Below are positions 33,549 through 34,859 of a DNA stretch of 64,000 bases, in pieces; within the stretch, counting starts at the first letter, position 1; the number at the start of each line of letters is the position of its first letter. The notes below the pieces were generated by a model that was given only the letters and a program-made list of their open reading frames with translations, was not told where the DNA came from and searched no databases. Source of the DNA: Escherichia phage 04086; the sequence record OR842557; one strand, given 5' to 3'. The translations under genes were made by a program, and so were the position numbers.

Positions 33549-34859
33549 AACAATACCAATTTTTAATTAAAGATATCCTGGAAAACGGCTACGAAACTGA
33601 CGACCGCACAGGCACCGGTACAATTGCACTGTTCGGTACTAAATTGCGTTTTGATTTAACTAAAGGCTTCCCAGCAGTAACAACTAAAAAATTAGCATGG
33701 AAAGCCTGTATTGCTGAGCTTCTTTGGTTCCTTTCGGGTTCAACCAACGTTAATGACCTGCGTCATCGTACTCACGGTTCACGAACTGAAGGCAAAACTA
33801 TTTGGGACGAGAATTATGAAAATCAAGCAGTTGATTTGGGATATTCTGATGGCGAACTGGGTCCTGTATACGGGAAACAATGGCGAGATTTTGGTGGTAT
33901 CGACCAGGTTGTAGAGATTGTCGAACGCATTAAGAAAATGCCTAATGACCGTCGTCAAATCGTATCAGCATGGAACCCTGCCGAACTAAAACAGATGGCC
34001 TTACCACCGTGCCATTGTTTTTACCAGTTCAACGTTCGTAATGGTCATTTAGACCTCCAATGGTATCAGCGTTCTGTTGACGTGTTCTTAGGATTGCCAT
34101 TTAATATCGCCTCTTACGCCGCTCTTGTGCATATTGTAGCTAAGATGTGTAATCTTATTCCTGGCGATTTAGTGTTCTCNAAATCGTATCAGCATGGAAC
34201 CCGGCAGAAATTAATAAGATGGCTCTTCCTCCATGCCACTGTTTTTATCAGTTCAACGTTCGTAATGGTCATCTTGACCTCCAGTGGTACCAACGTTCTG
34301 TTGACGTGTTCTTAGGATTGCCATTTAATATCGCCTCTTACGCCGCTCTTGTGCATATTGTAGCTAAGATGTGTAATCTTATTCCTGGCGATTTAGTGTT
34401 CTCNGTCAAATCGTATCAGCATGGAACCCTGCCGAACTAAAACAGATGGCCTTACCACCGTGCCATTGTTTTTACCAGTTCAACGTTCGTAATGGTCATT
34501 TAGACCTCCAATGGTATCAGCGTTCTGTTGACGTGTTCTTAGGATTGCCATTTAATATCGCCTCTTACGCCGCTCTTGTGCATATTGTAGCTAAGATGTG
34601 TAATCTTATTCCTGGCGATTTAGTGTTCTCAGGCGGCAATACACACATCTATTCTAACCACGTTGAACAATGCCAGGAAGTTCTTCGTCGTGAACCTAAA
34701 GATCTGTGTGAACTGGAAATACGGTATTGGCATAAAGATTTCCATGAATGGACAACAGAACAACAGTTGGCTTGGGTTACCGGAATGATGTATCCTGAAG
34801 ATTTCGTCCTTAAAGGTTACGAATCGCACCCTACTATTAAGGCTAAAATGGCTGTATGA
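33545..34859 (+). CDS. td: Thymidylate synthase, intron-less; reading frame broken by a triplicated segment with two N junctions
   Basis: Recalled similarity to T4 Td ([32 protein letters not shown]); uninterrupted [12 protein letters not shown] at the site where T4 carries its group I intron. Confidence 0.9.
33954..34630. repeat. Three direct copies of ~225 bp of td separated by N at 34180 and 34404; the middle copy is a mosaic
   Basis: Copies 1 and 3 are identical; copy 2 differs at about 20 mostly synonymous positions in its first ~110 nt and is identical thereafter. Confidence 0.8.

Follow-up and report, generated by a model that had tools for sequence, protein, structure and literature searches.

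A triplicated thymidylate synthase segment in the Escherichia phage 04086 record as an assembly artefact

The td locus and its three copies

The thymidylate synthase gene (td) of Escherichia phage 04086 (sequence record OR842557) raises the question whether a segment that is written three times, with a diverged copy in the middle, reflects an event in the phage genome or in the making of the record. In the stretch of 64,000 nt analysed here (the window), the td segment is present as three head-to-tail copies of 223-226 nt, with one N between neighbours. Copy 1 (33954-34179, + strand, corresponding to td 410-635) and copy 3 (34405-34630, +) are each 226 nt long and show no difference in the alignment; their sequence is called the main allele in the following. 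Copy 3 opens the next contig, which thus shares its first 226 nt with the end of contig 1. The middle copy (34181-34403, +), a contained fragment of 223 nt assigned to a second genotype, lies between single Ns at 34180 and 34404, just as the first-pass annotation of this DNA had described it. Both Ns mark contig joins: the repeat runs right up to the N at 34180 on either side, and the N at 34404 is likewise flanked by the duplicate. With 223 nt at 92-100% identity, the repeat far exceeds what would be expected by chance.

The middle copy differs from its flanks at 18 positions, all of which are found at copy positions 23-113 (window 34203-34293, td 435-525). The first-pass annotation had correctly recognised this clustering, but its count of about 20 differences in the first ~110 nt has to be corrected to 18 within positions 23-113. 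In the translation, the middle copy reads AEINK versus AELKQ in the flanking copies. Three adjacent codons are altered, giving three amino-acid changes, and the remaining changes are synonymous, which agrees with the earlier description of mostly synonymous differences next to this substitution. From CGTTCTGTTGACGTG at 34294 onward, the final 110 nt are identical to the flanking copies by alignment, as had also been noted.

As written, the reading frame is shifted at the first N junction and the ORF is truncated. The 5' part of td (33545-34179, +; thymidylate synthase) comprises 635 nt up to the contig end before the first N, and the 3' remainder (34631-34859, +) completes a 287-aa ORF once the duplication is collapsed. 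Joined directly, the two parts form an intact ORF of 864 nt and 287 aa, the product of which matches Pfam PF00303 (Thymidylat_synt) with an E value of 1.7e-98. The collapsed gene has the same length as, and 99.1% identity to, the td gene of Salmonella phage vB_SalD_ABTNLS3, and the triplication is absent from all related phages compared. At window position 34643 (td 648), 13 nt past the end of the repeat, the record has an A where 11 of 11 reference Dhakavirus td genes, including that of ABTNLS3, have a G; this could be a further polymorphic site tied to the position of the contig end.

The phage belongs to the genus Dhakavirus, i.e., the JS98-like group of T4-like phages. Over 36-56 kb the closest record is that of phage LQ5 (98.3% identity), and no phage record scores higher over these 20 kb. 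We considered the window as a two-parent chimera of LQ5-like and ABTNLS3-like genomes and rejected this, since identity varies patchwise and several regions match none of the genomes.

Duplications at the runs of N

The window contains 12 runs of N (2727, 8479-8481, 12361, 13224, 34180, 34404, 36777, 41683, 42463, 46283, 58326 and 58561). At each of them the preceding 132-233 nt recur directly after the N with 0-18 differences, and in all 12 cases the duplicate alignments end 0 nt before the N and start 0-4 nt after it. In a repeat search of the whole window, the N-bounded duplicates were the only direct repeats of 80 nt or more with over 72% identity; otherwise the search returned only three alt paralogs with 63-72% identity. 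These paralogs (53886-58798) are repeat units 1898 and 2094 nt apart that align over 233-283 nt, and their counterparts in ABTNLS3 are annotated as three tandem Alt-like ADP-ribosyltransferase genes. As a genuine gene family they have to be kept apart from the N-bounded artefacts, one of which lies inside the third copy.

All duplicates are on the + strand. The topoisomerase II genes are affected three times, namely at the start of the large subunit gene (N at 2727; 2541-2914, 186 nt, 3 differences) and twice in the medium subunit gene (N at 12361; 12166-12557, 195 nt, 4 differences; and N at 13224; 13055-13393, 169 nt, 3 differences). An exact duplicate, of 132 nt, surrounds the NNN at 8479-8481 in rIIB (8347-8613). 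Further duplicates are located in nrdA (N at 36777; 36610-36945, 167 nt, 3 differences), in a gene annotated in ABTNLS3 as 'inhibitor of host transcription' (N at 41683; 41477-41889, 206 nt, 3 differences), in a spanin-like gene (N at 42463; 42293-42635, 170 nt, 2 differences) and in the dCMP deaminase gene cd (N at 46283; 46057-46509, 226 nt, 5 differences). The layout seen at td occurs a second time in an Alt-like ADP-ribosyltransferase gene (Ns at 58326 and 58561; 58127-58798), where a variant fragment of 234 nt with 3 differences is found between two main-sequence copies, the start of copy 3 being equal to copy 1 over the first 25 nt, which were checked.

Collapsing the duplicates restores a gapless alignment to LQ5, E33 or ABTNLS3 at nine of the ten loci, and stop-free frames then extend over 608 codons across the gene-39 junction and over 756 codons across the nrdA junction. 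The extra length is not a multiple of three at 7 of the 10 loci; thus, the genes at these loci are frameshifted as written. Taken together, these disruptions are incompatible with a viable phage, and none of them occurs in any relative. The duplications are therefore products of assembly and scaffolding, and the triplication of the td segment is one such artefact.

The differences between the duplicates are themselves informative. At the non-td junctions, the differing sites are mostly spaced by multiples of three, and at most of them both bases are known among LQ5, E33 and ABTNLS3. Therefore, the junction differences are real third-position polymorphisms and not base-calling errors. At the eight other junctions with differences, none of the 26 differences lies beyond nucleotide 60 of the post-N copy (log10 P about -13 for uniformly placed differences). 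The pattern has one direction throughout: differences are confined to the beginning of the post-N copy (60 nt, or 113 nt at td), and none is located close to where the pre-N copy ends. This presumably reflects the assembler or scaffolder software. The tail that is identical after each cluster of differences is a product of how the pieces were built.

An N-joined scaffold of a mixed-genotype sample is, with high probability, the explanation of the td triplication, the middle copy being a stray piece of the second genotype. The sample would have contained at least two closely related Dhakavirus genotypes, and the differences between them would have resulted in separate contigs with overlapping ends, or in small contigs contained in their neighbours. 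The scaffolder would then have set these contigs end to end with one N (once NNN) and without merging them. At td, contig 1 would end at 34179 and contig 3 would start at 34405 with the same 226 nt, with the 223-nt fragment of the minor genotype inserted between them; the real td gene would harbour the segment in a single copy and encode 287 aa in 864 nt. The lengths of the duplicates, which do not exceed ~237 nt, suggest an extension by about one read length. A mixed phage population was among the options named in the first-pass annotation, and the two td alleles together with the polymorphic sites at the other junctions argue for it.

Such structures have been described before. Kelley and Salzberg (2010; PMC2864568) reported duplicated overlapping contigs in draft assemblies, which they attributed to haplotype differences, and sometimes observed one duplicated, contained contig between two overlapping contigs. 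The present loci resemble that false duplication in their adjacent copies with gap characters in between, in alignments that reach the contig ends and in differences that consist of SNPs only. The small contained contig between overlapping contigs recurs at td and at 58326/58561, and in both systems the true sequence is regained by collapsing. However, here co-occurring phage genotypes take the place of homologous chromosomes, and the pieces measure only 132-233 nt.

For users of the record, the main value of these observations is that of a quality flag, since ten of its loci together contain about 2.6 kb of falsely duplicated tandem sequence. Anyone taking the record at face value would see frameshifts or duplications in td, nrdA, cd, alt and the genes of both topoisomerase II subunits. 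The Ns also indicate the presence of more than one Dhakavirus genotype in the source sample, and if reads were available, the junctions would be ready markers of strain mixture and recombination.

The second td allele and the origin of the middle fragment

Over its first 120 nt, the middle copy shows 100% identity to the Escherichia phages vB_EcoM-E33, LQ5 and LHE83, and over its entire length it matches these three at 98.7%, the best value in the phage collection. The divergent stretch (34203-34293, +; td 435-525) carries the E33/LQ5/LHE83-type base at 18 of 18 differing sites. The comparison with other T-even td genes, which had been recommended as a check, thus bears out the proposal that the fragment stems from a second, diverged td allele. 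These matches demonstrate that the divergent 91 nt represent a real, circulating td allele. The main allele (33957-34179, 223 nt) is 100% identical to the td gene of ABTNLS3. Only ABTNLS3 and PSD9 match this patch in full; the phages ranking behind them, with 91-92% identity, all belong to Dhakavirus. An origin of the main-allele patch from another genus, e.g., from an intron-bearing T4-type td, would have lent plausibility to a homing footprint; this origin was rejected on the basis of these matches. We also rejected a DGR-like pair of template and variable repeats, since the substitutions are not adenine-specific: A is present at 6 of the 18 differing td sites in the main copy and at 5 of 18 in the middle copy, the rest being C, G or T.

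Within the fragment, 21 sites distinguish E33 from the main allele. In the middle copy, the first 18 of them (td 435-525) have the E33-type base and the last three (td 582, 600 and 618) have the main-type T, G and T, so that the right-hand side of the switch is defined by only three sites. In between, an interval of 56 nt (34294-34349, +; td 526-581) is common to both alleles and holds the homolog of the T4 intron site; the next informative site is td 582. Since the alleles do not differ in this interval, any change from E33-type to main-type must have taken place within td 526-581. It is inferred that either the two genotypes truly share the identical 3' 110 nt of the fragment, or an assembly or PCR path switched genotype in the 56-nt stretch. 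The fragment may represent a haplotype that occurs naturally in the minor genotype, a product of recent recombination between the co-occurring genotypes, or a chimera formed during assembly or PCR via the shared 56 nt.

The last of these origins, in which the fragment corresponds to no real molecule and was produced by an assembler path that entered in the minor and left in the major genotype via the shared 56 nt, or by library PCR, is possible but seems the less likely course of events. It is a sub-case of the artefact explanation and concerns only the origin of the mosaic. The E33-type left block is found only in E33, LQ5 and LHE83, and these phages with the exact 18-site left haplotype all have A, A and A at td 582/600/618, where the fragment has T, G and T. 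The exact 223-nt haplotype has no copy in the phage collection (best match 98.7%), and a 197-nt pattern of it gave 0 matches in IMG/VR and 0 in the JGI metagenomes. The 105-nt left block by itself also gave 0 matches in both IMG/VR and the JGI metagenomes. A k-mer graph with k up to 55 could merge both alleles through a stretch of 56 identical nt, and the identical tails at every junction are in line with such a path. On the other hand, a fragment of 223 nt could represent one read or one merged pair of reads, and an assembler would not turn either of these into a chimera; related phages also make the haplotype plausible in nature. In JS98, KIT01, AnYang and ABTNLsp5, E33-like left sites occur together with the main-type base at both td 582 and td 600. 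KIT01, AnYang and ABTNLsp5 possess mostly E33-like left sites together with T, G and T at td 582/600/618, and JS98 holds the exact 98 nt across the switch. Combinations of an E33-like left and a main-like right part are thus ordinary in the Dhakavirus td gene pool.

This fits the mosaicism of core genes in the JS98-like Dhakaviruses. Both td alleles belong to the circulating pool, one being of the ABTNLS3/PSD9 type and the other of the E33/LQ5/LHE83 type, and the 11 reference td genes contain many patchwise combinations of the same third-position variants. Nothing of substance sets the locus apart from this mosaicism; the exact 223-nt combination is absent from the databases searched.

The switch and the I-TevI site homolog

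The first-pass annotation had placed the breakpoint a few codons before the T4 intron site, and the alignment with spliced T4 td substantiates this. In T4, exon 1 of td (549 nt) is followed by an intron of 1017 nt. The homologs of the insertion site lie between 34093 and 34094 in copy 1, between 34317 and 34318 in the middle copy and between 34544 and 34545 in copy 3. In the middle copy the insertion-site homolog is thus 24 nt downstream of the last divergent site; the cleavage offset of I-TevI is 23/25 nt. The same alignment places the homolog of the I-TevI cleavage motif of the middle copy at 34291-34295 (+; td 523-527), where it reads CAACG as in T4, and the corresponding pentamers of copies 1 and 3 (34067-34071 and 34518-34522, +) read CAGCG. 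Both td alleles therefore carry CNNNG, which is the cleavage motif of I-TevI (PMC3943268), and the last divergent base (td 525) falls inside it.

This position led to the proposal of recombination near a homing-endonuclease target. In its explicit form, co-infecting Dhakaviruses would have exchanged a tract recently, and its right end would stem from a double-strand break at the I-TevI-site homolog of an intronless td. Such an exchange is very improbable. The divergent block does end in the CNNNG homolog 24 nt upstream of the insertion-site homolog, i.e., in the same gene and at the same position as in the homing of the T4 td intron. For E33 and the main allele as chosen parents, the split of 18 versus 3 sites is non-random (P = 1/1330 for that exact arrangement), and a free-standing homing-endonuclease-like gene is encoded 5 kb away (39309-39983). 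However, all of the td copies, as well as td in 11 related phages, where it is uninterrupted (858-864 nt), lack both an intron and an endonuclease gene, and the site matches that of T4 I-TevI at only 28-29 of 39 positions. All E33-type sites are upstream of the putative cut and the three informative sites downstream are main-type, so that the divergence is one-sided; co-conversion normally flanks the break on both sides. Moreover, the end of the tract is placed only within 56 nt. This is the largest gap between informative sites, and a uniform breakpoint (td 435-618) would land in it about 31% of the time. Finally, nine other, unrelated loci that hold no known endonuclease target have the same structure.

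Across 11 Dhakavirus td genes, td 526-581 is nearly invariant, with one variable column in td 526-563 (td 537, in one phage), a part of the gene that codes for a conserved protein region. Per 30 nt, there are 8-9 variable columns in td 421-480 but only 1-2 in td 541-600. The divergence stops at td 525 because the stretch that follows is nearly invariant in all Dhakavirus td genes examined. Conservation of the target stretch is the usual reason given for why endonucleases target it. The artefact explanation attributes the divergent base inside the CNNNG homolog to coincidence arising from this sequence conservation, and a homing endonuclease is unnecessary to explain where the switch is found. 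With the same N-bounded duplication at all 12 runs of N, a switch located only within 56 nt, and a td gene that lacks both intron and endonuclease, the proposed recombination at a homing target is not upheld, and the td locus adds nothing new on homing endonucleases. The narrower claim that the fragment is a true molecule of the minor genotype, main-like but with an E33/LQ5-type patch of at least 91 nt that was ended by a cut at the I-TevI-site homolog, is marginally more improbable still. If true, it would mean that endonuclease-initiated allele exchange in an intronless td is still polymorphic in a natural Dhakavirus population.

A genuine tandem triplication of the td segment in the phage genome is scarcely credible. 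Only the sequence as written speaks for it; Ns separate the copies, the reading frame of td does not continue across the junctions, related phages have no such repeat, and corresponding repeats at every other N would disrupt nrdA, cd, the genes of both topoisomerase II subunits and others. Least credible of all is a divergent stretch made of sequencing errors or low-quality calls in one allele, the outcome that had been named as refuting a second allele: nothing more than the position beside an N favours it, and it is excluded by differences that recur, all 18 of them, in the td allele of three separately sequenced phages and that are mostly synonymous, with only the three adjacent codons from AELKQ to AEINK altered.

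Some further features of the window were observed. Just upstream of frd, two small overlapping ORFs (32376-32967, +) match PHROG 8592 and PHROG 4308, two families of unknown function, and the interval 32501-33000 has no match in LQ5, ABTNLS3 or E33. The endonuclease-like gene at 39309-39983 (+) is a 224-aa ORF that matches PHROG 314 'homing endonuclease' (E 2.4e-16). Its N-terminus is GIY-YIG-like by eye (YIYKIT...YYIGKRS), with no Pfam match at E 0.01 or better. It is located between a denA-like endonuclease II gene (38902-39336) and an unannotated 382-aa ORF (39980-41128), which occupies the place of the RNA ligase gene of ABTNLS3. Because 39501-40000 is unmatched in LQ5, ABTNLS3 and E33, the 224-aa ORF looks like the insertion of a free-standing endonuclease gene. 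In the region of the distal long tail fibre and adhesin genes (about 17500-24500), similarity to LQ5, ABTNLS3 and E33 is either lacking or ~70-80%, compared with 90-98% in the flanks, which, going by these identities, suggests a different receptor-binding module.
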